Shown here in pieces: positions 14,901 to 24,832 of a DNA stretch of 34,452 nucleotides; the first letter of the stretch is position 1, and each line of letters begins with the position of its first letter. This stretch comes from Candidatus Adlerbacteria bacterium (GTDB lineage: Bacteria; Patescibacteriota; Minisyncoccia; Phycocordibacterales; SBAW01), in assembly GCA_903915735.1 (NCBI GenBank), contig CAIWUA010000073.1, positions 1 to 34,452 of the forward strand, in the 5' to 3' direction. The notes under the pieces are model-generated. The model did not search any database, was not told the DNA's origin, and saw only the letters and a list, made by a program, of their open reading frames with translations. Made by a program: the position numbers and the translations under genes.

Positions 14901-16624
14901 GTAACATCGCCTACAACAGTGGCAGTGTCTCTATCGGCGGCAACGTCTCTATTGGCAACGGCGCGGTGAGCTACGACTCGGGCTCGGGCGTGACCGCCAT
15001 CAGCAACCTCTCTATCGGTGCGCTTAACTTCCCGCTTGATGCGGGCATGGTGCAGTGGGTAGACCTGCCGGTATCGGCCGCCCCCGCCGGCACCGAAGAG
15101 GGTTACTCGGCCATGATCGGCGGTGCCGAAGTGCTCACGGTGTACGGCGAGTCAAACGGCGACGGCACCGTGGGCAACCTGCGTGTGGGCATCGGCACCA
15201 CCACGCCGGTGGCGGTACTCGACGTCGAGTCGACCACCTCGTTTGCATTGTTGCCACGCATGGACAACCTCGAGCGCGACGCGATTAGTTTGCCGCAGAC
15301 CGGCGGGCTTATCTTTAACACCGCAAGCTCGACGCTGCAATACTTTGCAACCTCGACACCGGGCACCGTCGAGACCATCGGCACTTTGGCCGCCGATCAG
15401 GCTGTGTATGACGGCCCGGCCGAGGGTCAAACATACACCACGACCGCCGCCGGGCGACTCACGCAAATCGAAGGCTCCTTTGCAATACGCACGGCGCCCG
15501 ACTCGGTGGTGGCCAAAGTGTACGACGCGCCCAACGGCAAGCTCTTGGGTGTGTCGGACAATGCGGTGTCCGACAGCGACGCCACCGAGTTTACCTTTGT
15601 CGACGGCACGTGGACCTTTAACAACTGGGCGGTGATGCTAAAGGCAAACACGAGCTACTACATCGAATTTACCGCGGTCGGCAACAACAATCTATATTTC
15701 GACACGACGCAAAATTATCCCGGCTCGGGCGGTGTGTACGCCGGCGGCAAGCACTACTCGGGCCCGAGCGGCTCGGTATCGGCGCATGACGACATGGACC
15801 TCAACATGCGCTTGACCTACGGCGGTTCGACGGGCGGATGGTCTGATGTCGGCTACGGCGGCGCCTTCGAGTGGAGTAATGCCGGTGGCACGGGCGCGAT
15901 GTCGTATGTCGGCGGCAATGTCGGTATCGGCACCACCTCGCCGTGGACTACCTTTGCGGTCCAAGGCACCGTGGCTATGAGCGGCCTGTCGACAGAGACC
16001 GGCATGAGCGGCGCGGCGCTGTGTCTAACGGCTTCGGGCGAAGTCGTCGTTAACTCGGGCGTACAAGACTGTACGCTGTCCTCCGAGCGCTACAAACACA
16101 ATATAGAAGGCCTCGATATTTCCGGCACTTCGACCATTATGGAGCTTTCGCCGTCGTCGTTTGTATACAACAGCGACACGGCATCGACGACGCATTGGGG
16201 CTTTATCGCCGAGGCGCTCGCGTCGACCAGCCCCGAACTTGCGCAGTACGGGCTCGACGGCAAACCGCAGTCGGTCAACCAAATCGGCATACTCGCGGTG
16301 GTCGTCAAGGCGGTGCAAGAGCTCACGGCTACGATCCAAGGATTTGCCGAACGCTTTACCTCCAAAGAGGTCGACACACAAAAGTTGTGCGTCGGCGACA
16401 CCTGCGTGACACAAGATCAGCTCAAGGCACTCTTGCAGGCGGCGGGCTCGTCGTCGACCCCTGCGGCACCAAGCGGTGCGGCGACCTCGAGCGACTCAAC
16501 CTCTGGCACCGACGACTCGGCAAGCTCTACGCCGGCCGATACCGAAGCGTCTTCGACGCCACCTGTCGCGCCTACTGACACAGACTCTGCAAGCACCTCT
16601 CCCGACGCCACACCGGCCAATTAA
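2936..16624 (+). CDS. Giant secreted tail-fibre-like surface protein (4,562 aa). Order: signal peptide, GIGT-collar stalk modules, seven LVIVD-like beta-propeller blocks, two paralogous beta-sandwich-like domains, S74-type C-terminal intramolecular chaperone, acidic S/T/P tail
   Basis: One uninterrupted 13,689-nt ORF. The N-terminus MALRLHTVFGVFFAVLALYGAPLFVAHAAW is a signal peptide. GGAGGGG (2917-2923) lies upstream, and there is no in-frame alternative start after the TAA at 2912. A coherent repeat architecture runs throughout (see sub-features). Confidence 0.92.
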   Translation: MALRLHTVFGVFFAVLALYGAPLFVAHAAWDHTPYAAGQTLNPECGPTDENCTVNTNYFSQPVGFATTTPAATVEIAGSGRGNTFLGSGSSLLNIDAANEGPWGLTFQNDVAGMGNEVGFYLGNDGTFHLSDNIGHFLFNAFQNGNVTLAQYGGRVGVGTSNPQSTLDVGGDIGISGYNRYLNFNVDNFGVGSGGFGLRDNGGTIQYKNLGGSWTDLSQSAWETNGSGIDYGGGSVGIGTTEPKTTLTVNGALSTLLEGDVFKQYDPTTGEGNLYPLLGRYFDESGSPYSGMTFLFGSGPSAAVGIEKPGGDKVNLFRVRADNSTFTGNVGIGTTNPTSKLDVVSMPGTDVGDSVASFTSNDTWQSGFTVSNTSSEAAWSFMVGGDTNNYSGVDVGNFGFYNAASGNFPFIMQRSSNNVILTRDNGRVGIGTSNPNAKLQVDGLVTGDSFGVGQNTWLTNSAPWYGIGLSDLSLPRTEDAGRAVQVAGYGGLNFITSGGQMVLNDQGKVGIGTNDPQSTLDVNGDIRITGSDHRLYFSDGSSMWTSSSTNASGVDSEGDINFTTGGQINLITGDGFATSSKLTVKNNGWIGIGTQDPTSPLDIYDNQTGQRNLLTLQSFFDGGDQGPGILFRDTNNPGGDGAAGIRAISSGQGEAGLAFDTNYSGSLNEAMRIDSRGRVGVGTNNPDEMLQVNGRASADSFSVGQATEDNFNNSPWYGIGQSNITLPGTDYEFGTAVQVAGYYGLLFQAAGGQAVFNQQGNFGIGTTAPATMLDVAGSARLTSTTGDTYLNFGTSTTGADGYGVRFHAGVMQFRNNGGDWTDLGTGYGTPTTTINIAGPGGNDGLKFSSTYSSPTGWAGNVIGSSTNYLYVQNNNRGFDVVDITNRAHPVRVASYQTGSSWINQSFSFGSTVYLIGYDGRYHLEIIDVSDPTHPVETGTYYSTSADHVYQGAAWGGEVYLKNDNGYIEAVNVSNPASPQVDAVIHAHSDDGPFWNPPHASGNRLFVADYNGDVEIFDVTDPTAPVWKSNYHSAQGWAYHYTISGNYLYENFNNFEVVDIHDLTSPTLVATYSSPSSWIDAPTVSGAYAYAENNNSQLEAIDISNPAAPTFVTTYASASGWLNGSPFIDNGYLYTENNNNQLEAIDISNPHVPIAATFTGGRVGVGTLSPDAALSVVGTGGNVPVFKSHYISPTNYLNTPFVLNSIAYSENDNGAIEIIDETDPTHPVLDATYASTTGSLRVPMAAGNALYAVNNSDGSIEVVDVTNKSAPTYLTSLVGQEGSTFNYFTISGSHLYAVDTAGNLEIFNISDPSNITLDDAFTASTGLDYNNVISAQGTWVYVRTTDEDIDIIDASTPSAPTDEGTYSPHTGIVRSFFAADGVLYIQNSSYNIEIADLQTPSSPVYRSTYDVPTNLFIRSGAEEENRFLYIPDNDCSIEVVDVNDQYNPRLVSVYKGPSNCAGNAFVDSNKLYVINGNDQLEVADISSVPHPSSAATFEDGLVGIGTNTPHATLDVNGNVALSGYNRYFNFNADNSGVGQNGYGFRDNSGTIQYKNAGGTWSDFSAPSGWVAESDGSTRFGSGTYTLSGLPTKSSDITDGLFLYPVNVNSNTDWRYYIDDDSTDSLSFYGNSCASDCHNASAASVIMHLNASGEVGIGTSTPAAKLDVAGSARLIADGDAYLNFNSTTNYAGDTIGNGGYGIRMHNGVMQFRNESGDWTDMGSGTGSISSTTALTLIGTTTPPVISGTSTYGDWPTAVAIQGHYAYSVNSNSGSFTVTDITNHNSPVVVDVITGLGSDYDSPEDIAVAGHYAYVTSEGNERLYVVDISNAENVSVVGSYDFSSLGNGPDHIKVEGSYAYVTAPNAGLAVLNIQNPLNITLTGFLKLPGADPLTVQGSYVYVSDVTTNDVYAINVADPAHPAIVGGISVASAYGLDMAGRYLYVASNNSGELTVIDAADPSSLSFVTSVETDNYPGFVKIEGKRAYVSTSNGLDVFDISDPTSPVFVSTALSGTYVVNFDTDGQWGYALVEGIGGALLTVDLGSSYIQNLAAGGIKTTSLTIEHALSAQSGLFQNGVSVGGSVLANGGISAMGQSSFERIGVGTTTMRAGLDVVGSSNDQVVTLTSASATSTGNIVDMAWGDGVLAAAEDGTVTIWTTSGTTLQWQSTITATDSIKAVAIVGSLLLVGDGRYLKAYAITDPTNPTYQNEVYTGEQIRGITTYGNIAYVVNDASVIETYDLAVLVGGSDNPFLGYASLSGTPYHVKLSADGNYAYVSEWGRVQVIDVSNLTSPVSTGAYAPGDIGGGGIAVGNGYAYTTRNTSDGKSFVVLDTSDPTNPVPVGYADIGIDREYTGMVVVGSTVYVSDGDLDSVYAINVSKPTHPVVVGHSPTQSSYNRAIATDGSGNLFVGEFGTLEGFSTSAQSLAALFMNGNVGIGTSQPQAQLEISGQGSGNFFGDPTLLAIHTQDGTPWGIAFVNDAAGSNIGFGEFLTNDGTLVFEKGDDMNNLSLTQDGLMGIGTRTPDAKLTIANGGIHLTNTGDNYINFGEAPGELTGAEGYGIRIHNGAMQFKNEGGDWTDMGSGGGGNLSLSGSMLTTTLGTTTQYTDGTGAFVDGTTDHAVIVGQTITPAHNGMLQSVEALIRMFDVDHDGQVIVKIYDDNNGTLLAQADAPQVAPYMYGAPADTTWTFNASRLMLQAGHTYDVEFVSLSNNDIMLFEADGDAYAGGNMYDGPYHGSLTPQPGNDLQFNVVYGGQTGGLVEVGSLASPLSLNLLGSTTPMTLASTSVGQTPWGMTVAGGWGYVANGESGTLSVLSLSNPLHPQTVATLSGFGQSGGPTEVPEDVAVQGSYAYVTSEEESRLYVVDISNRAKPAIISSVEFGDLGGSNSPDHVVVQGQYAYVADEDQGLVIINIGDPKHPTIASRMGNNGSPEQLAVRGKYVYITNTDQKGLDVVDVSDPSAPHIVGHDDIAGGPYGVTLDSRYAYVTLGMSDSGGQLVVVDIADPTAPHTVATLPIAQDGANFVAIQGKLAYVTGDNGLSLVDISDPTNPQLVGTSNEKVALGDMAIEGRYLFATQMDSGSVYVLDLGGSYIQQLEAGGIKAGSLSVTGNFSAQSGSIAGALSVGGLTAQGPAAIHSLLQVFGNGGTNGARYTATYRSTEGLQVPSTATTVTGRQLALFGTDGDGFEIIDVTNPNSPVIKGRYSSVNSPFSDPYVAGTTAYGANTNGNLEAVDITDPTNPQFGSETAGDVPLVSVAGVEASTTASSTIYAIDAAGNLEKLYADPSDGTSVAYDSTYVASHALEQVQFDFAHEMAYGVNSNHQIEVVNLVNMSNITSFEGLAPIFKIALSGNYVYATNNYGQLMSLHSNSNGDLQQVGIYNTTNACITTGTPPVIHGSYAFVLTCNNAFEIVDISNPVQMSYVGTYASPTGSLNYAAIIGNNLYSIDDNNNLEIIDASSPKPPVAATFTGGHVGVGTTNPGAALSVVGEGGSTVTTLGQYQSPSTDLSSNYMVDGDYVYALNNNSAIEIIDERDTARPQRVAVITDKNFSQIDVQGDLLAATASDGSGLRLYDTADKAHPIATSTIAANDTGDSGHLVWPVIVGNRLFAIDTGNNQLEAFDISDPSNPSYLGNYASVSGDGLSTSFRIAVQGTVAYVYNQDNQIELIDVHDPTDMAPLSTWTGGSGASGDFSVSGQYLFQRNNGGNLEIVSVANPASPSAITTFYPDSSLGTLTKSMFYQGHLYVPDDCQIDVLDLTDPSSPVRVDTYHSPSSCASEPNISQNGKAFVYNDSDGIEAINIAGISQKNMAATFVNGLVGIGTDNPDAQLDVSGTFAASGALRFGSGTYWMNNVPTLATNANEGLFMYPTQTGGGNSTDYQWIIDGGFGGSMSFWGSIPFGNHNAQDTSLIMYMDAYNNRVGIGTSNPHALLDVNGDVAISGYNHYINFNADGSGVGSGGYGIRDTGGTMQFKNSGGTWTNFGAGTLQWTDDGMGNIAYNSGSVSIGGNVSIGNGAVSYDSGSGVTAISNLSIGALNFPLDAGMVQWVDLPVSAAPAGTEEGYSAMIGGAEVLTVYGESNGDGTVGNLRVGIGTTTPVAVLDVESTTSFALLPRMDNLERDAISLPQTGGLIFNTASSTLQYFATSTPGTVETIGTLAADQAVYDGPAEGQTYTTTAAGRLTQIEGSFAIRTAPDSVVAKVYDAPNGKLLGVSDNAVSDSDATEFTFVDGTWTFNNWAVMLKANTSYYIEFTAVGNNNLYFDTTQNYPGSGGVYAGGKHYSGPSGSVSAHDDMDLNMRLTYGGSTGGWSDVGYGGAFEWSNAGGTGAMSYVGGNVGIGTTSPWTTFAVQGTVAMSGLSTETGMSGAALCLTASGEVVVNSGVQDCTLSSERYKHNIEGLDISGTSTIMELSPSSFVYNSDTASTTHWGFIAEALASTSPELAQYGLDGKPQSVNQIGILAVVVKAVQELTATIQGFAERFTSKEVDTQKLCVGDTCVTQDQLKALLQAAGSSSTPAAPSGAATSSDSTSGTDDSASSTPADTEASSTPPVAPTDTDSASTSPDATPAN
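3394..5410 (+). other. N-terminal stalk region of the giant ORF, containing eight collar motifs (G-x-V-G-I/V-G-T-x-x-P-x-x-x-L-D-V) and two 'QY/F-K/R-N-x-G-G-x-W-T-D' modules
   Basis: Read from the translation: GRVGVGTSNPQSTLDV, GSVGIGTTEPKTTLTV, GNVGIGTTNPTSKLDV, GRVGIGTSNPNAKLQV, GKVGIGTNDPQSTLDV, GWIGIGTQDPTSPLDI, GRVGVGTNNPDEMLQV, GNFGIGTTAPATMLDV. There is also a duplicated SPWYGIG...AVQVAGY segment. Confidence 0.6.
5510..6405 (+). repeat. LVIVD-like beta-propeller block 1 (7 blades, type A) in the giant ORF
   Basis: Blade cores: FDVVDITNRAHPV, LEIIDVSDPTHPV, IEAVNVSNPASPQ, VEIFDVTDPTAPV, FEVVDIHDLTSPT, LEAIDISNPAAPT, LEAIDISNPHVPI. Period is about 43 aa. Boundaries are approximate. Confidence 0.6.
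6485..7423 (+). repeat. LVIVD-like beta-propeller block 2 (7 blades, type A)
   Basis: Blade cores: IEIIDETDPTHPV, IEVVDVTNKSAPT, LEIFNISDPSNIT, IDIIDASTPSAPT, IEIADLQTPSSPV, IEVVDVNDQYNPR, LEVADISSVPHPS. Confidence 0.6.
8170..9075 (+). repeat. LVIVD-like beta-propeller block 3 (7 blades, type B with G-x-Y-A-Y-V strands)
   Basis: GHYAYSVN..FTVTDITNHNSPV, GHYAYVTS..LYVVDISNAENVS, GSYAYVTA..LAVLNIQNPLNIT, GSYVYVSD..VYAINVADPAHPA, GRYLYVAS..LTVIDAADPSSLS, GKRAYVST..LDVFDISDPTSPV. The block ends LLTVDLGSSYIQNLAAGGIK. Confidence 0.6.
9290..10190 (+). repeat. Divergent propeller-like block 4 (about 7 blades, type C)
   Basis: YLKAYAITDPTNPT, VQVIDVSNLTSPV, FVVLDTSDPTNPV and VYAINVSKPTHPV, plus degenerate blades (VTIWTTSGTT, VIETYDLAVL, LFVGEFGTLE). 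Confidence 0.45.
10720..11190 (+). other. Domain X, copy 1: about 155-aa beta-sandwich-like domain of unknown function (its pattern is reminiscent of DUF4082-type domains)
   Basis: GQTITPAHNGMLQSVEALIRMFDVDHDGQVIVKIYDDNNGTLLAQADAP...TTWTFNASRLMLQAGHTYDVEFVSLSNNDIMLFEAD...YAGGNMYDGPYHGS...NDLQFNVVYGG. It is paralogous to 15380-15826. Confidence 0.4.
11270..12210 (+). repeat. LVIVD-like beta-propeller block 5 (7 blades, type B; paralogue of block 3)
   Basis: GGWGYVANG..LSVLSLSNPLHPQ, GSYAYVTS..LYVVDISNRAKPA, GQYAYVAD..LVIINIGDPKHPT, GKYVYITN..LDVVDVSDPSAPH, SRYAYVTL..LVVVDIADPTAPH, GKLAYVTG..LSLVDISDPTNPQ. The block ends VYVLDLGGSYIQQLEAGGIK. Confidence 0.6.
12400..13327 (+). repeat. LVIVD-like beta-propeller block 6 (7 blades, type A)
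   Basis: FEIIDVTNPNSPV, LEAVDITDPTNPQ, LEKLYADPSDGTS, IEVVNLVNMSNIT, a degenerate blade LMSLHSNSNGDLQ, FEIVDISNPVQMS, LEIIDASSPKPPV. Confidence 0.55.
13410..14358 (+). repeat. LVIVD-like beta-propeller block 7 (7 blades, type A)
   Basis: IEIIDERDTARPQ, LRLYDTADKAHPI, LEAFDISDPSNPS, IELIDVHDPTDMA, LEIVSVANPASPS, IDVLDLTDPSSPV, IEAINIAGISQKN. Confidence 0.55.
15380..15826 (+). other. Domain X, copy 2 (paralogue of 10720-11190)
   Basis: GQTYTTTAAGRLTQIEGSFAIRTAPDSVVAKVYDAPNGKLLGVSDNAV...GTWTFNNWAVMLKANTSYYIEFTAVGNNNLYFDTT...YAGGKHYSGPSGS...MDLNMRLTYGG. Its conserved positions are in the same order as in copy 1. Confidence 0.4.
16079..16440 (+). other. Peptidase S74-type C-terminal intramolecular chaperone / autoproteolysis domain of the giant ORF
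   Basis: S-S-E-R-Y-K-H-N-I-E-G-L (codons from 16079) fits the S-D-x-R-x-K-x-x-I Ser/Lys dyad signature of tail-fibre and endosialidase chaperone domains. It is followed by FVYNSD...HWGFIAEALAS..PEL...VNQIGILAVVVKAVQEL and LCVGDTCVTQDQLKALL. Confidence 0.7.
16441..16621 (+). repeat. Low-complexity acidic Ser/Thr/Pro/Asp tail (about 60 aa) at the extreme C-terminus of the giant ORF
   Basis: AGSSSTPAAPSGAATSSDSTSGTDDSASSTPADTEASSTPPVAPTDTDSASTSPDATPAN. Confidence 0.8.
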
Positions 16625-16627
16625 TAT

Positions 16628-19351
16628 ATGAAGCGCTTTTGGCAATTTCTCCCGCTCATTGTCGCGAGCTTTTTAATCATCTCGGCGGCATCGGCATCGG
16701 TCGTGATGGGGGTCTTGCGCTCAAACCAAGGAGACATAACAACCGGCTTGGTCGACCACTACACCATGGACCATGTCGACTTTAGCGGGTCGACGCTCCA
16801 CGATGTGGCGGGCGGCGCCGACGCAACCTTGGTCGGTTCGGCCGGCACGACGGTCGGCGGGCCGCTGGGGCAGGGGTACTTATTTTCGGGGGGTACCACC
16901 TTTGACACGACGCGCATCGTGCAGGACGACTTTACTATTTGTGCGTGGTTTAAAACGACCAGCCGTGGCATCTACACGAACCACTGGCAGAGCATGGCGA
17001 TTTACGACTCGGAGCAGCCGGGGCTTGCACAAGATTTTAGTTTGGGACTCGACTCCAACGGCAGGCTGATGTTTGGTGACGGCAGCGTAAGCCAAGGAGA
17101 CTTTAGTTTTAGTGGTCAGAGTACCGTCAACACCGGGCTATGGGTGTTGGGATGCGCGACGCGCCAAAAAAGCACCGGCGCGATTACACTCTACGTCAAC
17201 GGCGCGCCCGACGGCAGCGGCACGGGGGCGATTGGCACGTCGCTTACCTCAAATGCTTCGGCGCGCATTGGTGGCGGATTTGACGGGGCAGCCAACTTTA
17301 CGGGCACGATCGACGACGTACGTGTATACAACCGCGTTCTGTCGCCGCGGGACATCCAAACGCTTTACAGCGTGCCGGTGCCGGCCTCAATCCCGGGGCT
17401 CCGGCTGTGGCTGCGGGCGGACGAAATCCCGGGTCTCTCCGACGGCTCCGAGCTCACGGCGTGGGACGACTCAAGCGGACACAACAACTCGTTTACGCCG
17501 CACCCCGGCGATTCGGGGCCGACCTATCACACCGGCGAGTTGGGCGGCCTGCCGTCGCTGATGTTTAGTACGAGCCAATCGCTGCAAAACACCGGGCTCA
17601 ACCTCAACTCGAGTTGGACCATACTCTACGTCACAAGACTGCTCGGCACGACCAACGGCCGCACGCTGCAAGGCGGCAGCAATAATTGGCTCTTGGGTAC
17701 ATGGGGCACGTATGTCAACTCGGCATACTACAACAACGACATCCATTTAGTGAGCGATGCGGCCGACACGCAGTGGCGGCTGTATGAAGGTACCGGCAGT
17801 CGCGCGCAGGCGCATGGCACCTTTTATGTTAACGGCCGGCTCGTTGCGCAATCGAGCACGGCCTTTGAGGGGCCGGTGGGGTTAGGACTCAACAGCGGCG
17901 CTTTTAACGGCGAGCGCTCGGGTATGGAGGTGAGCGAGGTGCTGGCCTACGACCACCCGCTGACGCAAGTCGAGCGGGTACGGCTCGAGCAGTATCTTAA
18001 AACTAAATACGGGTTGGATATTGTGTCCGAAAAGCCCGCGACCGCCGCGCAGGTTAACAGTGTCTCGACTGATGGGTTGGTGGCGTACTGGCCGCTCGAC
18101 GATGCGTCGACGCCTATCAGGGACAAAAGCGGCAATGGATACGACGGTACATTGGGGGGCATTTTTGCTCCGGCTACGGGCAAAATAAATAAAGCACTCT
18201 ACTTTAACGGCGGCACGCTTATCGCCACCACGCTGCCGCTGCCGCGCTCGTACACCAAAGCGGCGTGGGTCAAGCTAAGTTCGTGTGTCGGTGCCAACAA
18301 CTTTATCTCGAGTGTCGACGACAGCGGGACGGCCTTTTGGGCGCCAGATTCCTTTGGGTGCAAATTGAGCGCCGGTAATCAAGGGACATGGGATATTGTT
18401 CAAGACTCGGTGGGGCTGACGCCGGGTGTGTGGTACCACGTGGCGGTAACGTACGACCCCGACCTCAACGGCGGCACCTTGAGTCTGTATAAAAACGGCG
18501 TCTTGGTAAGTGCTGCCACTAACATATCGCCGGCATCGAGTCCGTATGTGCAGCTGGGCGGCCACGACAACGGCAATAATCTCAACGGGTACATGGACGA
18601 CGTGCGCATCTACAACCGCGCGCTCTCGGCCGCCGAAATTAAAAAGCTCGCCTCCTTTGTGCAGACAACTCTCAATGACTCGACAAACGCGCGCTTTACC
18701 TCGGGGCTTGTCGGCCACTGGAGTTTTGACGGCGGCGACATTAATTGGGCTGCGCCAAGCGTCACCGACAGTTCGGTGTCGGGGCACAATGGCGCGCTCG
18801 TCGGCTTTTCGAAATCGAGCGTCGCGGCCGGCAAGGACGGCCAGGCGCTGCGGTTTAACGGCAGCAATTATATTGCCGGCGGCGACGCGTCGTTGCTAAG
18901 CGGCAATCATCCGCGTACGGTGAGTGTGTGGGTCAAGCCCGACCAATTGCCGGCCACTAACGAAGCCGGAGTGTTGTTTAATTACGGCACAGCCGACACA
19001 GACCAAGCGTTTGGTATCGGGCTTATAAACATCGAGGGGGTACAAAAGGTGCGTGTCTTTGGTTGGGGTGATGATTATGATGTGACGGTAACGCTCCCGG
19101 TGCATCAATGGACATTGCTTGTTGCCGAGTATGACGGGTCCCACTCTAACTTGTTTGTTAACACGACATTTGCAAGCGGGCATTATCCGGACAACAGCAA
19201 CGTCCGCCCTTCTTTATATACGGTCCTCAACCAGTATGAGATTGGGCGCAATATTGCTGGGGGCGACTATTATCAAGGGCTTATAGACGACGTACGTGTG
19301 TATAACCGGGCTCTTGCGCCGAGTGAGATACAAGCTTTATACTTACTGTAA
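16628..19351 (+). CDS. Secreted protein with four tandem LamG / concanavalin-A-like lectin domains (907 aa)
   Basis: Signal/TM segment MKRFWQFLPLIVASFLIISAASA. Four roughly 200-aa units each end in a LamG_3-type motif: GTIDDVRVYNRVLSPRDIQTLY, SEVLAYDHPLTQVERVRLEQYLKTKYGL, GYMDDVRIYNRALSAAEIKKLA, GLIDDVRVYNRALAPSEIQALY. The ATG is 3 nt after the giant ORF stop. Confidence 0.88.
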   Translation: MKRFWQFLPLIVASFLIISAASASVVMGVLRSNQGDITTGLVDHYTMDHVDFSGSTLHDVAGGADATLVGSAGTTVGGPLGQGYLFSGGTTFDTTRIVQDDFTICAWFKTTSRGIYTNHWQSMAIYDSEQPGLAQDFSLGLDSNGRLMFGDGSVSQGDFSFSGQSTVNTGLWVLGCATRQKSTGAITLYVNGAPDGSGTGAIGTSLTSNASARIGGGFDGAANFTGTIDDVRVYNRVLSPRDIQTLYSVPVPASIPGLRLWLRADEIPGLSDGSELTAWDDSSGHNNSFTPHPGDSGPTYHTGELGGLPSLMFSTSQSLQNTGLNLNSSWTILYVTRLLGTTNGRTLQGGSNNWLLGTWGTYVNSAYYNNDIHLVSDAADTQWRLYEGTGSRAQAHGTFYVNGRLVAQSSTAFEGPVGLGLNSGAFNGERSGMEVSEVLAYDHPLTQVERVRLEQYLKTKYGLDIVSEKPATAAQVNSVSTDGLVAYWPLDDASTPIRDKSGNGYDGTLGGIFAPATGKINKALYFNGGTLIATTLPLPRSYTKAAWVKLSSCVGANNFISSVDDSGTAFWAPDSFGCKLSAGNQGTWDIVQDSVGLTPGVWYHVAVTYDPDLNGGTLSLYKNGVLVSAATNISPASSPYVQLGGHDNGNNLNGYMDDVRIYNRALSAAEIKKLASFVQTTLNDSTNARFTSGLVGHWSFDGGDINWAAPSVTDSSVSGHNGALVGFSKSSVAAGKDGQALRFNGSNYIAGGDASLLSGNHPRTVSVWVKPDQLPATNEAGVLFNYGTADTDQAFGIGLINIEGVQKVRVFGWGDDYDVTVTLPVHQWTLLVAEYDGSHSNLFVNTTFASGHYPDNSNVRPSLYTVLNQYEIGRNIAGGDYYQGLIDDVRVYNRALAPSEIQALYLL

Positions 19352-19362
19352 CCTTGATACTT

Positions 19363-19566
19363 ATGAACCGACTCATACAACTCGCATCGCTCTTTTCGGT
19401 AGCGTTGGTCGCCGGTGCCGCAGGCGTAGTTAAAATCGCGCACAATCCGGGTGCTCTCATGGCAACTCTGCACAGCAGCAAGGTGGCGCTCGCCGCCGCT
19501 CCGGTGTGTACCGTGCAAGAAAAAAACGGTGTCTATTTTGCAAGCTGCGGCGACTTTGTCGAATAA
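19363..19566 (+). CDS. Small secreted hypothetical protein (67 aa from the ATG; a TTG at 19354 is possible)
   Basis: MNRLIQLASLFSVALVAGAAG is a signal peptide. The mature part has two Cys (PVCTVQEKNGVYFASCGDFVE). It is packed between neighbouring genes with 11-nt and 3-nt gaps. Confidence 0.5.
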   Translation: MNRLIQLASLFSVALVAGAAGVVKIAHNPGALMATLHSSKVALAAAPVCTVQEKNGVYFASCGDFVE

Positions 19567-19569
19567 ATC

Positions 19570-21144
19570 GTGAGACTATTGCGTCTCGGGTTGGTAGTGG
19601 TTGCGGTGGTGATAGTTGGGGGCGGCGTGTGGGTGGGCTATGACCGCTACGCGCAGGCAGAAGAGCGCGCACGCCTGGTGCGCGAACTTGCCGACTTTGT
19701 GGTGCCCGAGGTGGTATATAACGGCATTACCTATACGGTTGGCGACAGCACACCACTGCCGGTGTTGCGTATTGCCTATGCCGCGGTACTCAGCCGACTT
19801 GACCCTTTGTACGGGCTCGAGGGGACTGAGCCCGACAAGTTGGTGCAAAGTGTTGATGATTTAGAAAACTTTCAATCCTCGCTCGGGGCATCGTACGACC
19901 CCAGCCAGGCGCTCTACATTACTAAACTCTTTCCGATTGATTTTTTGCGCGCCGCGGCCGACACCGAGCGGGCGCGGCAGGATTTTGTTGCTGCACCGTC
20001 GGACACTCGTCTCCGTGCTTACGAGCAAAGTCTGCGCACAACAGTGCGGGGAGGCCAGAGCTATGTAGACGACTTGCTCAACTTTTTAGATACGCAAGAC
20101 ACCGGAGTAAAGAAGGGCCTCGCATTTTTTGACGGAGAGACCACCCTGTCCGATTACACCGCGAGCCTCGCCGAGTACCGCAAGACTCTTGCCTGGGCCT
20201 CTGCCGCAGTCGACCGGCGTGATGCTTGTTTTGATCGGGTAGGCGACGGGTGTCCGTCGTTGCAGGACACCTTAGCAAAGCTCGCGGCGGGCACGACCAC
20301 CGCATCGGTTGCGGCCGCCTTACCGTCACAGGTCGAGACTAACCGCGCTTTGCTTACAAAGTACATGCGCGGCAGTTCGGAGGCGACGGTTGGCAAGGTG
20401 GTGGCGCTTACGGGGAGCCCCTGCTTTGCGCAATTTGATCCGGTGTACTACTTGTCTATGCAAATACCGCAAGGCAGCTCGACCGCGTACTCGTTGGGGT
20501 TGCTCAACGATATTTATTTTTATGATTCGGCCAAACATCCGACCGACGCGCGCTACACGCCCGAGCTAAAGGCCGCCGTGCCGTACGTCTATCAGTCGGC
20601 ATCTAATTTGTACATGTGTTTGGCATCGGGCAACGACCTGGTGCGCGCGATAACACTCGACACGCTGGCGCATCGCTTTGGCGTCCGTTCGCCGGTCATA
20701 ACCGAACCTGACCTCGTGGCCCGCACGGCGAGCGCCGGCAGCGAGCTGGTACATGTTGGCGAGCGTGCGCTTGCGGCTCGGCAAGGCACGGCCACGGTCT
20801 ATGCTACCGAGCGTACGCTCCTTATTGCCCACGAGCACGGCGCTCGTTTTGACGAGCTGATAGAAGATGCTATCGCTAACGAAGACGCCGCCGCGGTGTA
20901 TGCCGCCAATAACGAAAAGTTGCCCTTGGCAACGCTCTTTTTGGCGCGCAGTTACTTGCCGCTTCTTATGCTGACCTACAACCTAAGTGTGTCGCCCCAG
21001 CCGCTGGTGTTAACGACGCCGTACTATTTCACCATTACCCAGTTTGGGTTGGTCCCGTACAGCGCGCTTGAAAGTACCTACTCGCCGGCACAAATGCTCG
21101 CCATGATGTTGAGGGGGAGTGCCATACAAAAAAAGCGCCCCTAA
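19570..21144 (+). CDS. Hypothetical membrane-anchored protein (524 aa); no family recognised
   Basis: GTG start. The N-terminal TM is LRLGLVVVAVVIVGGGVWVGY. The composition looks like real protein, in contrast to the Arg-rich alternative frames. The following gene starts 2 nt after its stop. Confidence 0.75.
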   Translation: MRLLRLGLVVVAVVIVGGGVWVGYDRYAQAEERARLVRELADFVVPEVVYNGITYTVGDSTPLPVLRIAYAAVLSRLDPLYGLEGTEPDKLVQSVDDLENFQSSLGASYDPSQALYITKLFPIDFLRAAADTERARQDFVAAPSDTRLRAYEQSLRTTVRGGQSYVDDLLNFLDTQDTGVKKGLAFFDGETTLSDYTASLAEYRKTLAWASAAVDRRDACFDRVGDGCPSLQDTLAKLAAGTTTASVAAALPSQVETNRALLTKYMRGSSEATVGKVVALTGSPCFAQFDPVYYLSMQIPQGSSTAYSLGLLNDIYFYDSAKHPTDARYTPELKAAVPYVYQSASNLYMCLASGNDLVRAITLDTLAHRFGVRSPVITEPDLVARTASAGSELVHVGERALAARQGTATVYATERTLLIAHEHGARFDELIEDAIANEDAAAVYAANNEKLPLATLFLARSYLPLLMLTYNLSVSPQPLVLTTPYYFTITQFGLVPYSALESTYSPAQMLAMMLRGSAIQKKRP

Positions 21145-21146
21145 CT

Positions 21147-21728
21147 ATGTTGCACCACTACGCTCCGGCTTCGTTCGACAAAGACGCAACAGACGTTGTC
21201 GTCCTTTCCGACCGGCCGGAGTGGAGCTCGGGTACCCGCGCTCTTCGGGTGCTCAAGTCTGTGGTAGTGCTGACACTGGTGCCGCTTTTTTGGCAGCTGC
21301 TCCCGGGGTTACACGGCGCGTGTCGGGTACTCAAGGTGCCGTTTTTTTTAGGTTCGATGGGCAACCTTACTCTGGCGGCCGTGGTAGCAGCCGAAGCGGC
21401 TGTTGATACGGTTATGGCCGAGGCATGCGATGCTCAACAAATTATCGACGCCCTCAAGCTTCATGGGGTCGCGCCGCGTGCATGGGTGCTCCTTCATCGG
21501 GGTGGGGAGGTGCGGCCTTTGCCGATGGCTTTATTGGCGCCGTATATCCAGGTCGCCCAAGAGGTCCACGCTATCCCGGGCGTGGCGTGCTTGGCACAAT
21601 GCGAGGTGCTTATCGCGCGCAAAGAAGCTCTCTTTCATACCGTGCCAATGCCTGCCGCGGTCGAGCCGCTCGCGACCGAGGCCACAGGCACCTGCACGTG
21701 CGGCGAAACAATTTACCGATGCGTATGA
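21147..21728 (+). CDS. Hypothetical protein (193 aa) with a Cys-rich C-terminus; no family recognised
   Basis: ATG 2 nt after the previous stop. One hydrophobic segment, VVVLTLVPLFWQLLPGL. Ends GTCTCGETIYRCV. Its stop TGA overlaps the next ATG (ATGA at 21725-21728). Confidence 0.65.
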   Translation: MLHHYAPASFDKDATDVVVLSDRPEWSSGTRALRVLKSVVVLTLVPLFWQLLPGLHGACRVLKVPFFLGSMGNLTLAAVVAAEAAVDTVMAEACDAQQIIDALKLHGVAPRAWVLLHRGGEVRPLPMALLAPYIQVAQEVHAIPGVACLAQCEVLIARKEALFHTVPMPAAVEPLATEATGTCTCGETIYRCV

Positions 21729-22927
21729 ACCTACCCCAACCTCTTGTCGATCTTGTCGCGCGCTGCACGCACCTGCACATCAGTACGTGGGCGCAGTGGC
21801 AGGCCCTGCCGCCCGTTACGCGCGAGCAGCTCGGCCGCTTTTCGTATCGTGAGCGATGTGTAGTGCCGCTTGCCGAGGTCGAACGCATTGTGGCGACCTC
21901 GGGCACCAGCGGGCGACCGCCGTTTCTTACGGCACTGGGGTTCACGGTGCGTAGCTACGACTTTTTAGACGAGTGGTATCGTTTTAGCAAACCTATTGTG
22001 TGTGTTGACCAAAATTATCTGCGGCTCGAGCAGTACTTGGCGCGTGCCGGCTCGCCGGTGCCTATCCTTATTATCGACCCGCGCGCGCCAAAGGTAACGG
22101 CGGCGCTCGCCCAAGCGGCCGGTGCCGACACGTTGTTTATCCTCGAGCCGCAATTGCGCTCGGTGGGTGATGAGATGGCACGGTGCGGGGCTGCCGCCAA
22201 TATCCGCTTTTTAATGCTTGGCGGTGGCGACATTGGCCCGCACGTTGCGTATTTGTCGCGCACCTTCCCACAGGCGGTATTACTTGGCCGGTATGCGGCG
22301 AGCGAGGTCGAGGGCAACCCTATTGGGGTGCCGTGCAACGCGGTCACTCCCGAGGCACCCGAGCAGTACTATCATGCCAATACGGACATGCATCTCGATA
22401 TAGTCGACCCAACCGACGGTACCGATGTCCCGTGGGCACCGGGTGCCGAGGGCGACCTGCTGGTGTCGACTCCGCATCCGGCGGTCGCTTCGCCGCTCAT
22501 CCGCTACAAAATAGGCGACCGCGTGCGCGTCGCCGAAACGCCCTGTGCGCGCCACCGCGCGTACGCGTTTGCGGTACTCGGTCGCGCTAATCTCGACTTT
22601 GTTAAGGTGCAGGGCGGTCAATTGCGTGTCGACGAACTGGCCCGCACCGTGCGGCAATTTGCCGCCGTCATAACCGGTGAGTTTGAGTTGCAATACACCG
22701 AGCGCGACAACGGCCGTGGGGTCGAGCTTGCCGCCACACTCTACCTCGAGCCACGCGGGCCGCTTGACTGGACCCAGTTTGCCGAGACGATGGCACACGA
22801 GCTACGGGTGGGGCCGAGCTTTACCTACGCACAGGGTGTCGCTCGCGGCTGGTATGCCCCCTTGGTGTGCGCCCCTTTGCCGCCTATTACACAAGGGGTC
22901 AAGCGCAAACGCCTCACCCGTGTGTGA
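21725..22927 (+). CDS. Adenylate-forming enzyme of the phenylacetate-CoA ligase (PaaK) / coenzyme F390 synthetase family, about 400 aa (the ATG at 21719 is also possible)
   Basis: It aligns by eye to E. coli PaaK. VERIVATSGTSGRPPF matches VRIHASSGTTGKPTV. GRYAASEVEGNPIGVPC matches DIYGLSEVMGPGVAMEC. DIVDPTDGTDVPWAPGAEGDLLVST....PLIRYKIGDRVRV matches EIVNPHDGTPLADGEHGELLFTT....PVIRYRTRDLTRL. LGRANLDFVKVQGGQLRVDEL matches SGRSDDMLIIRGVNVFPSQLE. Confidence 0.8.
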   Translation: MNLPQPLVDLVARCTHLHISTWAQWQALPPVTREQLGRFSYRERCVVPLAEVERIVATSGTSGRPPFLTALGFTVRSYDFLDEWYRFSKPIVCVDQNYLRLEQYLARAGSPVPILIIDPRAPKVTAALAQAAGADTLFILEPQLRSVGDEMARCGAAANIRFLMLGGGDIGPHVAYLSRTFPQAVLLGRYAASEVEGNPIGVPCNAVTPEAPEQYYHANTDMHLDIVDPTDGTDVPWAPGAEGDLLVSTPHPAVASPLIRYKIGDRVRVAETPCARHRAYAFAVLGRANLDFVKVQGGQLRVDELARTVRQFAAVITGEFELQYTERDNGRGVELAATLYLEPRGPLDWTQFAETMAHELRVGPSFTYAQGVARGWYAPLVCAPLPPITQGVKRKRLTRV

Positions 22928-23581: not shown

Positions 23582-24832
23582 ATGCGCACCGCGCTCCTTA
23601 CGGCCATGCTCCTCTTGGGCTTACCGGCCGTGGCCTTTGCGTCGCAAACTGACGGCACTGTCTCTGCCACAACTAAGTATGCCTGGGGCGAGAATATGGG
23701 TTGGATAAACTTTGCGCCCCAAAACGGAGATACGTATACCGGCATCCATATTACCGATACAGCCGTAACCGGCTATGCATGGAGTGCGGCGGTAGGTTGG
23801 ATCAACTTTAGCCCGACCAACTCCGGGCAGGGGGTCACCAACACATCCGACGGCCACTTGGGCGGCTATGCGTGGATAGCGACCAAGGGATGGTTGTCTA
23901 TGTCGGGCGTTAGTATCAACTCCTCGGGCAAAATCACCGGTATTGCAGGCACCGAGGGGAGCACGGTTGGCCGCGTGTCGTTTGATTGTACGCAATGCAA
24001 CGTGACCACCGACTGGCGCCCCACATCGGCGCGCTCGGAGGATACACCTCCTCCGTCGCCGCCACCGGCCGCCGGCGGACCTATTGCCGTGGCGACAAAC
24101 CACCCAGTACCTGCAACACTTCCGGTGCCGACAACAGCGCCTGCCAGCCCCAACGCCGCGCCGTCCGCGGGCGACACGGCCGTACCAGCGGCCCCAGTTA
24201 GCAGCCCGGATCCTATCGCGCAATTTTATAGAGACATTATCCAAACTGTTCCCGCGTTGCGTGCCGACCTAAACCACGTCGAGTCGTACGACAAACCTTT
24301 GCGGGTCGAACCCCAACAAACCGGGCTTGTTGTCGGGCAGTTTGTAAGCGGGGTGGGGGCGGCCGTCGAGATACCGCGCAATGTATCAACCGGCGCGTTG
24401 ACTATCTCTATTACGGCGCGGCCGCTCGCGGTCTCTACCGCCACAACCGCCCTCGTAGCTATGGGGGGTGTAGCGTTTGATGTTACGGCCGTCGACTCTC
24501 AGGGCAATGCCGTCCACTCGTTTAATCATCTATTAAAAATTACGCTTGTCGTCCCACAGTCGCTGCAAGGCCGCAGCGACATTGGCGTGTATTGGTTTGA
24601 CCCCGGCTCGAACAATTGGGTGCTGGTGTCCGACGTGACGTTTACCGGGCGGACGGCGAGCTTTACGGTTGCGCACCTTACTCGCTTTGCGGTACTTGGC
24701 GACCGCATCGCAGTATCCCAACCGACACTGCCGCCGAAGACCGCCGTCAATGAAGACTGGCTTTGGCTGCTCGTGGTGCTTATTGTTGTGTACATTGCAC
24801 AGCGTTGGTATAGACACACCAGAGACAAATGA
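23582..24832 (+). CDS. Secreted, C-terminally anchored surface protein with three 'YAW-x(4-5)-GW-I/L-x-F/M' repeats and a Pro-rich linker (416 aa)
   Basis: Signal peptide MRTALLTAMLLLGLPAVAFA. Repeats KYAWGENMGWINFAPQNG, GYAWSAAVGWINFSPTNSG and GYAWIATKGWLSMSG. Linker TPPPSPPPAAGGP...PVPATLPVPTTAPASP. C-terminal TM WLWLLVVLIVVYIAQRWY. Confidence 0.8.
   Translation: MRTALLTAMLLLGLPAVAFASQTDGTVSATTKYAWGENMGWINFAPQNGDTYTGIHITDTAVTGYAWSAAVGWINFSPTNSGQGVTNTSDGHLGGYAWIATKGWLSMSGVSINSSGKITGIAGTEGSTVGRVSFDCTQCNVTTDWRPTSARSEDTPPPSPPPAAGGPIAVATNHPVPATLPVPTTAPASPNAAPSAGDTAVPAAPVSSPDPIAQFYRDIIQTVPALRADLNHVESYDKPLRVEPQQTGLVVGQFVSGVGAAVEIPRNVSTGALTISITARPLAVSTATTALVAMGGVAFDVTAVDSQGNAVHSFNHLLKITLVVPQSLQGRSDIGVYWFDPGSNNWVLVSDVTFTGRTASFTVAHLTRFAVLGDRIAVSQPTLPPKTAVNEDWLWLLVVLIVVYIAQRWYRHTRDK

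Follow-up and report, generated by a model that had tools for sequence, protein, structure and literature searches.

A probable four-gene module of Patescibacteria pairing a PaaK-like ligase with a putative truncated paralogue, a Cys microprotein and a membrane-anchored ectoprotein

Do the four tightly packed genes at positions 19,363 to 22,927 of a Candidatus Adlerbacteria contig act together, and if so, to what end? The genes, here called P1 to P4, lie in a 34,452-nucleotide stretch of DNA (contig CAIWUA010000073.1 of assembly GCA_903915735.1; the whole stretch is referred to as the window) and were singled out by an earlier note, made from the sequence and its open reading frames (ORFs) without database searches, as the part of the locus with the least precedent. 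The Candidate Phyla Radiation (CPR, or Patescibacteria) represents a large and mostly uncultured share of bacterial diversity, whose members live attached to hosts and whose envelope biology is almost unknown. Comparison across related loci indicates that P1–P4 very probably form one conserved CPR/Patescibacteria module with two cytoplasmic and two extracytoplasmic parts, and a mechanism can tentatively be proposed in which the ligase would charge a membrane microprotein for use outside the cell. The four genes are:

19363-19566, + strand: P1, ORF for a predicted 67-residue membrane microprotein
19570-21144, + strand: P2, 524 residues from a GTG start, with a predicted N-terminal anchor and large extracytoplasmic domain
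21147-21728, + strand: P3, 193 residues with the C-terminal end GTCTCGETIYRCV, a probable truncated pseudo-ANL protein
21725-22927, + strand: P4, a 400-residue protein with the motifs of a PaaK-like ANL adenylating enzyme

The ORFs, their coordinates and the spacings reported in the earlier note were all reproduced in a check of the reading frames: 3 nt separate P1 from P2, 2 nt separate P2 from P3, and P3 and P4 share a 4-nt ATGA overlap. All four genes show coding-like GC content by codon position (high at position 1, low at 2 and high at 3), and the same genes occur in independent public gene calls on four contigs, where P2 starts nine codons further downstream and is 515 residues long. These contigs, the four on which P4 is encoded, match the window at 99.98% identity and represent the same organism, so they offer no variation from which a ratio of nonsynonymous to synonymous substitution could be calculated. 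A 500-residue reading of P4 starting at 21425, inside P3, was rejected; its Arg/Gly-rich extension does not look like protein and is used by no public call. Scans for promoters and terminators found nothing above shuffled expectation that would split the gene array to which the four genes belong.

P2 and P3 had been described as orphans, and a word-indexed search of 5.8 billion proteins with P2, P3 and P4 returned only the proteins themselves. That apparent orphan status was overturned by an exhaustive HMMER search of 1.84 billion representatives with P2, P3 and P4 concatenated, which recovered 1096 proteins at E ≤ 1e-3. The top 150 of these comprised 51 P2-like proteins (24-41% identical), 90 P4-like proteins, five P3-like proteins (188-264 residues) and one P3–P4 fusion, among others, placing both supposed orphans in families, with P3 a probable truncated paralogue of the ligase. 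The only name that the sources give to these relatives is 'hypothetical protein', and no homologue of known, unrelated function emerged that might have explained the orphans away. Searches of Pfam, NCBIfam, PHROG and the PDB sequence set gave no match for P1, P2 or P3 (for P2, Pfam matched none of 50 family members), and a PHROG scan of P1–P4 returned nothing relevant. The judgement that these genes are the least-precedented part of the locus therefore stands.

Genomic contexts were obtained by searching GTDB genomes for a generic PaaK pattern ([FSL]P[LM][ILV]RYR[ITS]GD; 80 loci kept, three of them CPR), by querying metagenomes with P2 (six loci with usable flanks) and by exact look-ups of P3-, P4- and P2-like representatives. 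Once duplicates had been removed, 14 independent informative loci were available besides the window (188.5 kb), all of them CPR/Patescibacteria where a name is given. The other 77 loci from the pattern search (1.18 Mb; Planctomycetota, Verrucomicrobiota, methanogens and others) carry ordinary PaaK genes and were reused as a negative control. P1 was present in all 14 loci, the ANL ligase and a P3-type gene in 13 each, and P2 in 12, the two loci without P2 being short contigs; no P1, P2 or P3 was found in the 77 control loci. The order of the genes is not fixed: it is P1-P2-P3-P4 in the window, P3-P4-P1-P2 in loci L102 and L093, and P3'-P4s-P1-P2 in L090 and L084, and divergent and convergent arrangements also occur. 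The module loci vary in GC content between 38% and 61%, and their proteins are 24-38% identical to those of the window; they come from different organisms and not from one organism assembled repeatedly.

With the four families found together again in 14 further independent loci, the clustering goes beyond chance. It could be objected that unrelated small genes simply lie packed together in a streamlined genome, and the CPR-type gene density and short spacers seen throughout the window would allow for this; we nonetheless find such meaningless adjacency hardly credible, given that the families stay together while their order is rearranged, that P3–P4 fusions exist, and that P1, P2 and P3 are missing from the control loci. 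The proposal that the four genes form one unit is thus upheld by co-occurrence in shuffled order and orientation, together with two P3–P4 fusions. The closest ANL relatives of P4 are likewise linked to P1–P3, rather than scattered through unrelated contexts, the pattern that the earlier note had named as counting against its own proposal.

Individual loci illustrate both the persistence and the flexibility of the association. For example, in another Candidatus Adlerbacteria locus (L004) a giant gene (>3103 residues) is followed directly by P1-P3-P4, with P2 8.5 kb downstream, and in a locus from a 'Patescibacteria group bacterium' (L005) a giant gene is accompanied by P1, P2 and a divergently oriented P4. 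Ligase-type genes lay beside P2 in 6/6 of the metagenomic loci with usable flanks, and every P3 relative that was looked up had a ligase adjoining or fused to it, with P1 and P2 present wherever the contig was long enough. Two to three ligase copies occur per contig in L092, L098 and L104, some of them minimal P1–ligase pairs. P1 directly adjoins the ligase with no adjacent P2 at L092 15931-16122, L097 1247-1447, L098 15387-15647 and L095 3976-4173, which identifies P1–ligase as the tightest link in the module. Gene duplication is also seen: two tandem P3-like genes occupy L095 1524-2712, tandem P2-like genes are present in L093, L102 and L104, and L104 3840-5098 holds an apparently fragmented ligase. 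A Saccharibacteria contig (L006, CAZDFQ010000012.1), the third CPR locus of the pattern search beside L004 and L005, encodes a more distant ligase of the same family with no P1, P2 or P3; there, at 6580-9542, the ligase gene overlaps by 4 nt with that of an Lnt-like apolipoprotein N-acyltransferase (LNT_N plus CN_hydrolase, seven transmembrane segments), so that ligase and membrane acyltransferase are paired in another manner.

Which activities might these parts contribute? P4 is, judged by its motifs, a PaaK-like ANL adenylating enzyme whose core catalytic motifs are intact, and so a divergent member of a known superfamily and presumably the catalytic subunit. The same assignment had been made in the earlier note; from this single sequence it holds, but weakly. 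P4 scores only 13.7 bits against the Pfam AMP-binding model (PF00501; cut-off 29.9), and precomputed PF00501 matches are present in some of its relatives. Its membership of the ANL superfamily is thus argued from the motifs and from similarities to PDB and NCBIfam entries, the Pfam threshold not being reached. Similarity was found to PaaK in the PDB (2y4o; E 9.5e-7, 31 bits, aligned over residues 186-347), to a 401-residue 'phenylacetate-CoA ligase' (9s3l, aligned to P4 residues 16-319) and to the NCBIfam DVU_1553-family ligase (2.6e-13), with PaaK models at ~1e-7. All the NCBIfam scores fall far under the equivalog cut-offs, for example 29.8 and 32.2 bits for TIGR02155 and NF041878 against cut-offs of 646 and 700, and P4 should not be named PaaK on this footing. 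The window contains no paa catabolic genes. Two of the catalytic motifs are located as follows:

21896-21922, + strand: P4 P-loop (A3 motif) TSGTSGRPP, residues 58-66, from the alignment to PaaK 2y4o
22901-22903, + strand: P4 Lys393, the catalytic lysine (A10) of ANL enzymes, retained in 46/50 family members

The P-loop aligns to SSGTTGKP of PaaK 2y4o, and among 50 relatives S59 is kept in 48, G60 and T61 in all 50 and G63 in 49. Similarly, the A5 motif reads YAASE (E194 in 47/50), the A8 motif (RYRxGD) reads IRYKIGD (R260 and D265 in 50/50), and the GRxxxD hinge reads GRANLD (G286 in 50/50, R287 in 49/50 and D291 in 45/50). The ligases fall into two subtypes. The window type has 400-434 residues, C-x-x-H-G in place of CxCG, and a short P3 as its partner; the second has 366-384 residues, retains CxCG, lacks the N-terminal ~55-70 residues, and is partnered by a long or a 144-residue P3' or stands alone after P1. 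C204, C274, H277 and C382 of P4 are conserved in 34-39 of 50 ligase relatives, and Cys is also retained in the P3 family at the corresponding positions, Q-C and CxCG. These shared Cys/His positions may represent a common structural metal site, which is not a standard feature of ANL enzymes.

P3 appears to be a non-catalytic paralogue of the ligase that retains only the N-terminal domain and works with the ligase, a reading based on profile comparisons and on the two P3–P4 fusions. Its family shares the motifs P-x-x-F-D, P-L-F-W-Q, V-A-Q-E-V-H-x-x-P-G, Q-C and F-H and ends a few residues past G-x-C-x-C-G-E, the CxCG within this ending being common to long pseudo-ANL forms and to the short ligase subtype:

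21693-21704, + strand: P3 C-terminal CxCG (CTCG), residues 183-186, from the family alignment

The relationship of P3 to P4 is seen by profile-profile comparison only. BLASTP of P3 against P4 was not significant (E 0.69), and neither the P3 sequence nor the P3-family profile gave anything significant against the PDB. Alignment of the two families with hhalign placed P3 residues 37-117 on P4 residues 87-166 (E 3e-4, 40% probability), and addition of the long forms extended this to P3 37-167 on P4 87-222 (E 3e-7, 93% probability), a result that is partly circular, given the ligase-like character of the added long forms. These are proteins of 282-301 residues that stand in the place of P3 in related loci and match the ligase profile over its positions 3-304 with 32-45 bits. 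They have a PaaK-type N-terminus (F-Y-K/R-x-I/V-W), lack the P-loop and the Asp of RYRxGD, and stop just after CxC. The P3-family consensus likewise has no P-loop, and P3 itself terminates at CxCG, ahead of the hinge, with no C-terminal domain. The loss of the P-loop and of the mobile C-terminal domain points to a non-catalytic partner.

Coupling of P3 to the ligase is suggested by gene organisation. A ligase gene adjoins P3 relatives at 6/6 other places examined, the 590-residue protein P0012 is P3 fused to P4, and P0138 has a shorter P3-like N-terminus ahead of the ligase. PaaK enzymes dimerise via their N-terminal domains, which makes a P3–P4 heterodimer the obvious model by analogy. A single-sequence AlphaFold2 model of P3 had a mean predicted local distance difference test score (pLDDT) of 42 and was left out of the fold search. 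We know of no pseudo-enzyme partner described for an ANL or PaaK-like enzyme, and P3 would be the first.

P1 has a positively charged N-terminus, a hydrophobic helix (residues 4-27), a variable linker, Cys49 and the tail VYFASCGDFVE. Its cysteines are residues 49 and 62, giving C-x12-C and not the C-x14-C that had been reported, and the conserved part of the protein is the motif at its extreme C-terminus:

19531-19563, + strand: P1 C-terminal motif VYFASCGDFVE, residues 57-67, from the family alignment

In related loci the family consists of 60-90-residue ORFs adjoining the ligase or P2 gene and built in the same way, with a basic N-terminus, one hydrophobic helix, a variable linker, a Cys, an acidic stretch of 9-21 residues and the tail. 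The tail consensus, [LVY]-F-[VIA]-[SGN]-C-[GANS]-[GD]-[FL]-x-[EDP]?, runs up to the stop codon. Across 13 aligned sequences only F59 and C62 are invariant, with G64 nearly so, and the invariant Cys lies 4-5 residues from the C-terminus with small residues at its flanks, as the following tails illustrate:

Window: C-TVQEKNGVYFAS-CGDFVE
L102: C-AVEEKNVYFVS-CAGFF
L090: C-QPESAEESVSLFVG-CAGFLE
L004: …VYFVGCGGLF
L093: …SYFVSCGGIF

The terminal core motif closes 16 ORFs in the 14 module loci, compared with 0/19,693 ORFs in the 77 control loci, and among 147 representatives it was found fused to no P2- or P4-like protein. In most P1 sequences the N-terminal flank of the helix is more positive than the C-terminal flank, the Cys-Cys loop is acidic, and the A-x-A signal-peptidase site after the helix is missing (…GVSKTG, …GISKSG, …GVRKTT). 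From the flank charges and the missing site we infer that P1 adopts an N-in/C-out topology and stays permanently anchored with its tail outside. The hydrophobic N-terminal segment is supported by hydropathy, but the protein is better viewed as a membrane-anchored microprotein than as the secreted peptide of the earlier note.

P2 is predicted to be a membrane-anchored extracytoplasmic protein with a fold that has no match in the PDB or in BFVD. Hydropathy indicates a single N-terminal hydrophobic helix (residues 1-26), and an alignment of 50 family members contains invariant Cys220, Cys228, Cys285, Cys350, R136, Y151 and Y348. The structure prediction and Foldseek search that the earlier note had advised for this protein gave a confident AlphaFold2 model from the family alignment (pLDDT 94.6, predicted template modelling score 0.92), in which a long helix at the N-terminus is accompanied by helical bundles and a central β-sheet. 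No structure matched the model at E ≤ 0.001 in the PDB (best E 0.07, template modelling score < 0.2) or in BFVD. A short profile match to Bacillus subtilis YoeB/IseA (E 0.057; Y-x-Y-Q…Y-M-C-x-D-x-G) was considered and rejected as probable chance, Foldseek having given no confirmation.

How might these four parts work together? Our best reading, to which we assign a probability of roughly 35%, is that the ligase pair places a thioester on the invariant Cys of P1 and that P2 uses the acyl or peptidyl group outside the cell. It is prompted by the nature of the ligase's tightest partner, in which only a Cys and a Phe are invariant and these lie in a flexible tail of small residues, 4-5 residues from a free carboxylate; a thioester on that Cys would be the simplest chemistry to draw on all these features. 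The P3/P4 pair, with ATP, would form an acyl-adenylate from a carboxylate, and the acyl group would be captured by the invariant P1 thiol in place of CoA or phosphopantetheine; capture of the acyl group by a thiol is the canonical second half-reaction of ANL enzymes. The carboxylate could be a small acid, which would fit the TctC/DctP carboxylate-binding proteins encoded beside the ligase in some genomes, or it could be the C-terminal carboxylate of P1 itself, yielding a five- or six-residue thiolactone. Loading would take place in the cytoplasm and, as P1 is too short for co-translational export, ahead of translocation of the tail. The thioester would then be spent at the ATP-free outer face, where P2 would transfer the acyl or peptidyl group to an acceptor in the envelope or on a surface protein. 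The more specific proposal, that a Cys microprotein replaces CoA or a carrier as the thiol acceptor of an ANL enzyme and that P2 then acylates or ligates surface targets with no need of an MBOAT protein, a carrier or a sortase, seems to us doubtful, if worth stating.

Several observations weigh against the thioester proposal. A second Cys lies 9-21 residues upstream of the motif Cys in every P1, so that a disulfide between the two would be expected outside the cell and would compete with a thioester. The very end of the tail varies (…GFF, …GLF, …GFLE, …GFLP), which is awkward if the α-carboxylate needs a fixed distance from the motif. In the P2 family alignment no catalytic triad can be recognised and neither a Ser nor a His is invariant, and P2 may therefore serve for binding or as a scaffold and not as a transferase. 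The homology of P3 to ANL enzymes comes from profile comparisons of modest depth, the stronger of which includes the ligase-like long forms. The P1 motif and the ligase are predicted to sit on opposite sides of the membrane, outside and inside respectively, and the module offers no conserved polytopic protein that could connect them; the proposal must therefore assume that loading comes before export. Among multi-pass neighbours only a tetratricopeptide repeat (TPR)/GT-C-like protein recurs, in three loci. Finally, the window itself contains no TctC/DctP gene.

The same combination of enzyme and small Cys protein could also be read as a peptide maturation system of the autoinducing peptide (AIP) type, that is, a ribosomally synthesised and post-translationally modified peptide (RiPP). 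P4 would adenylate the C-terminus of P1, and Cys62 would close a 5-6-residue thiolactone, or the two Cys residues would form a disulfide loop; P3 would serve as a peptide-binding scaffold, P2 as a receptor, processing or immunity partner, and the product would be a signal or toxin. In every locus the modifying enzyme does have a precursor-sized gene as its immediate neighbour, ANL enzymes form thioesters as part of their native chemistry, and inactive paralogues are known as leader-binding partners in RiPP systems. The C-terminal pentapeptides C-G-G-L-F, C-G-G-F-F, C-N-G-F-F and C-A-G-F-F also match the shape of staphylococcal AIP rings such as C-S-S-L-F and C-D-F-L-L, in which a Cys is followed by two small or polar residues and two hydrophobic residues at the end. 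Yet in P1 it is the 'core' that is invariant and the 'leader' that varies, the reverse of most RiPPs, and the P1s look like permanent anchors, most of them lacking a site for release. The loci show no recurrent Agr-like component such as a protease, exporter or histidine kinase, and the conserved upstream Cys would be left unexplained, so that we regard maturation of a peptide product as unlikely.

Carboxylate salvage, which we think quite unlikely, would give the neighbouring binding proteins the leading part: TctC/DctP proteins would capture an acid outside the cell, candidates being host-derived organic, aromatic or fatty acids, P1 and P2 would be accessory, and P3/P4 would trap the acid by activation ('vectorial acylation'), leaving the Cys motif of P1 and the surface proteins incidental. 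Activation of carboxylates is indeed what ANL enzymes do, CPR bacteria are believed to rely on scavenging for their metabolites, and TctC/DctP genes stand directly beside the ligase in seven loci (L089, L090, L091, L092, L097, L098 and L104; TctC Pfam matches at E 1e-66 to 1e-70). These families provide the binding proteins of tripartite tricarboxylate (TTT) and tripartite ATP-independent periplasmic (TRAP) transporters, but permease genes (TctA/TctB or DctQ/DctM) were seen in none of the loci, the module occurs without TctC/DctP genes in the window, L004, L005, L093 and L102, and the single-pass P1 and P2 could not obviously make a channel. Salvage also fails to explain the C-terminal Cys motif of P1 and the P1–ligase linkage, the tightest of all. 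The binding-protein genes concerned are:

TctC family: L089 1587-2555; L090 6330-7334; L091 603-1565; L092 17232-18272
TctC family: L098 7802-8698, 12411-13391 and 20184-20795; L104 6951-7913
DctP family: in L097 and L098

A role tied to the giant fibre encoded upstream, the direction taken by the earlier note, in which the module would modify or anchor that fibre, for example through ligation of the envelope to the fibre or to a P1 tether, has more immediate appeal in the window than elsewhere. There the module continues a single tight array in which the S74 fibre gene is followed after 3 nt by the LamG gene and, after 11 nt, by P1; in L004 a protein of >3103 residues directly precedes P1-P3-P4, and large surface proteins are encoded 1-4 kb from the module in L005, L086/L106 and L090. 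The coupling to fibre genes that had been drawn from the window is therefore borne out to the extent that large surface proteins occur near the module in 5/15 loci (the window and the four just named). It does not hold as a general rule: the proteins belong to unrelated families (LVIVD/S74, Fib_succ_major, InlB-repeat/CARDB and FG-GAP), and about two thirds of the module loci have no giant gene within the DNA available. The two or three module copies in L092, L098 and L104 suggest a more general role, and the genes downstream of the window module (194 residues, 416 residues and DUF192) are not conserved with it. We consider a fibre-specific function improbable. The two upstream genes, which lie outside the conserved module, are:

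2936-16624, + strand: 4562-residue LVIVD-repeat protein with a C-terminal Peptidase_S74 domain
16628-19351, + strand: 907-residue protein with four Laminin_G_3 stretches

The wider setting of the module in the window is a piece of cellular genome with all substantial genes on the + strand. The 5' part encodes the C-terminal part of GroEL, LemA, an M48 peptidase and the two large proteins listed above; downstream of P1–P4 come three small genes and then a TPR membrane protein, MurJ, LepA and four tRNAs. A phage origin of the 'fibre' cluster was rejected in view of these cellular genes (GroEL, LepA, MurJ and the four tRNAs) and the null PHROG result. The 4562-residue protein has at least 12 LVIVD repeats and, at residues 4382-4435, a Peptidase_S74 domain (an endosialidase/tail-fibre-type intramolecular chaperone), which, in a cellular CPR-like genome, suggests a self-cleaving trimeric surface fibre. 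It shares weak similarity (E 1e-6) with the giant protein of the Adlerbacteria locus L004. At 23582-24832 (+ strand) a 416-residue secreted protein with a Pro/Ala-rich linker ends in …LPPKTAVNEDW-LWLLVVLIVVYIA-QRWYRHTRDK; this C-terminus looks like a sorting signal in that it combines a short motif with a hydrophobic helix and a tail of basic residues. Neither a sortase nor an exosortase gene was seen in the window.

Other neighbours recur less widely. A multi-pass protein (8-13 transmembrane segments) with C-terminal TPRs is encoded near the module in three loci, the window, L004 and L098, and may be a GT-C-type glycosyltransferase, since a PMT_2-like protein occupies a similar place in L092. 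Its genes are:

25703-27919 of the window, + strand: TPR membrane protein with 13 transmembrane segments
L004 12199-13653: TPR membrane protein
L098 1932-3803 and 4955-7006: TPR membrane proteins

In the window, AT skew falls to -0.42 at 26001-27000 and to -0.37 at 28001-29000, where the transmembrane regions of the TPR protein and of MurJ are encoded; this strongly negative skew probably reflects T-rich hydrophobic codons. In L093 alone, a GDSL/SGNH protein (3-932; Lipase_GDSL_2, 40.6 bits) is encoded directly upstream of P3-P4-P1-P2-P2', which is notable in view of the Dlt comparison made below. In the lineage represented by L105 and L106, a lytic transglycosylase gene (SLT_2; L105 6768-8105, L106 724-2061) lies directly upstream of P3''-ligase-P1-P2, with AbiEii toxin-like genes and a protein of at least 2371 residues downstream.

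What was an oddity of one genome has thus become a defined and widespread four-part module. If the thioester shuttle were true, it would represent a new route for the export of chemical energy to the cell surface and would show how ANL chemistry can be run by organisms whose cofactor metabolism is minimal. Even if the mechanism is wrong, the module is testable, with P1 as the candidate substrate and Cys62 as the specific residue.

How does the module relate to what has already been described? Literature searches returned nothing relevant on phenylacetate-CoA ligases in CPR bacteria, on giant or LamG surface proteins, or on PDB entry 9s3l, and no characterised system with this four-part architecture was found by sequence, structure or literature search. 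The existence of the module is well supported, and its P1, P2 and P3 families are without annotation. P4 shares with the PaaK-like ligases (COG1541; PDB 2y4o, 9s3l, 6siw, 4r1l and 6wuq) its domain order, length (~400-440 residues), P-loop, A5 motif, RYRxGD motif, hinge and Lys. It differs from PaaK itself in its very low similarity, in having no paa genes nearby, and in being obligately paired with a pseudo-paralogue and a Cys microprotein, neither of which is, to our knowledge, a partner of any described PaaK-like enzyme. P3 recalls the dead-paralogue partners of other enzymes, in that it appears to be a truncated and inactivated copy of an enzyme fold adjoining or fused to the active enzyme; for example, the E1-like 'C protein' of the YcaO cyclodehydratases is a catalytically dead paralogue partner. 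By analogy, such partners could plausibly be used for dimerisation or substrate presentation.

P1 resembles AgrD of the Agr system in being a small precursor-like protein with a membrane-associating N-terminus and a Cys 4-5 residues from a hydrophobic C-terminus, which would permit a 5-6-residue thiolactone. However, no AgrB, AgrC or AgrA was found in the window or the related loci, the P1 motif is invariant rather than strain-variable, and P1 has no cleavable C-terminal tail, ending 4-5 residues after the Cys, and mostly no signal-peptidase site; with no tail to cleave, ring closure would need ATP and an ANL enzyme.

In overall design the proposed mechanism resembles the Dlt pathway of teichoic-acid D-alanylation, which comprises the ANL ligase DltA, the carrier DltC, the MBOAT protein DltB, the microprotein DltX and the SGNH protein DltD. 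The membrane microprotein DltX has at its C-terminus an FXYXXF 'acyl shuttle' motif with an invariant nucleophile, and hands D-Ala on to membrane-anchored DltD (PMC12148441). Both systems would bring together an ANL ligase in the cytoplasm, a microprotein that crosses the membrane once and an extracytoplasmic protein with a membrane anchor, and in both the microprotein would present outside the cell a C-terminal motif on the scale of a hexapeptide whose invariant nucleophile is flanked by Phe (FXYXXF in DltX, F-x-x-C-x-G-F in P1). The two also differ. The P1 nucleophile is a Cys, with no conserved Tyr at that position. The window ORFs that were scanned gave no MBOAT match, and the multi-pass neighbours of the module are TPR/GT-C-like, MurJ, PMT_2 or Lnt-like. 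PP-binding (DltC-type) matches were absent both from the scanned window ORFs and from the Pfam results precomputed for related loci. Neither in sequence nor in fold is P2 an SGNH protein, and P4 is PaaK-like rather than DltA-like and comes with a probable extra pseudo-ANL subunit. The resemblance to the relay DltA -> (DltC/DltB) -> DltX -> DltD is, by this analogy, one of logic and not of homology: the parts are unrelated, and what the two systems would share is the passage of an activated group from a ligase inside, by way of a microprotein, to an anchored protein outside.

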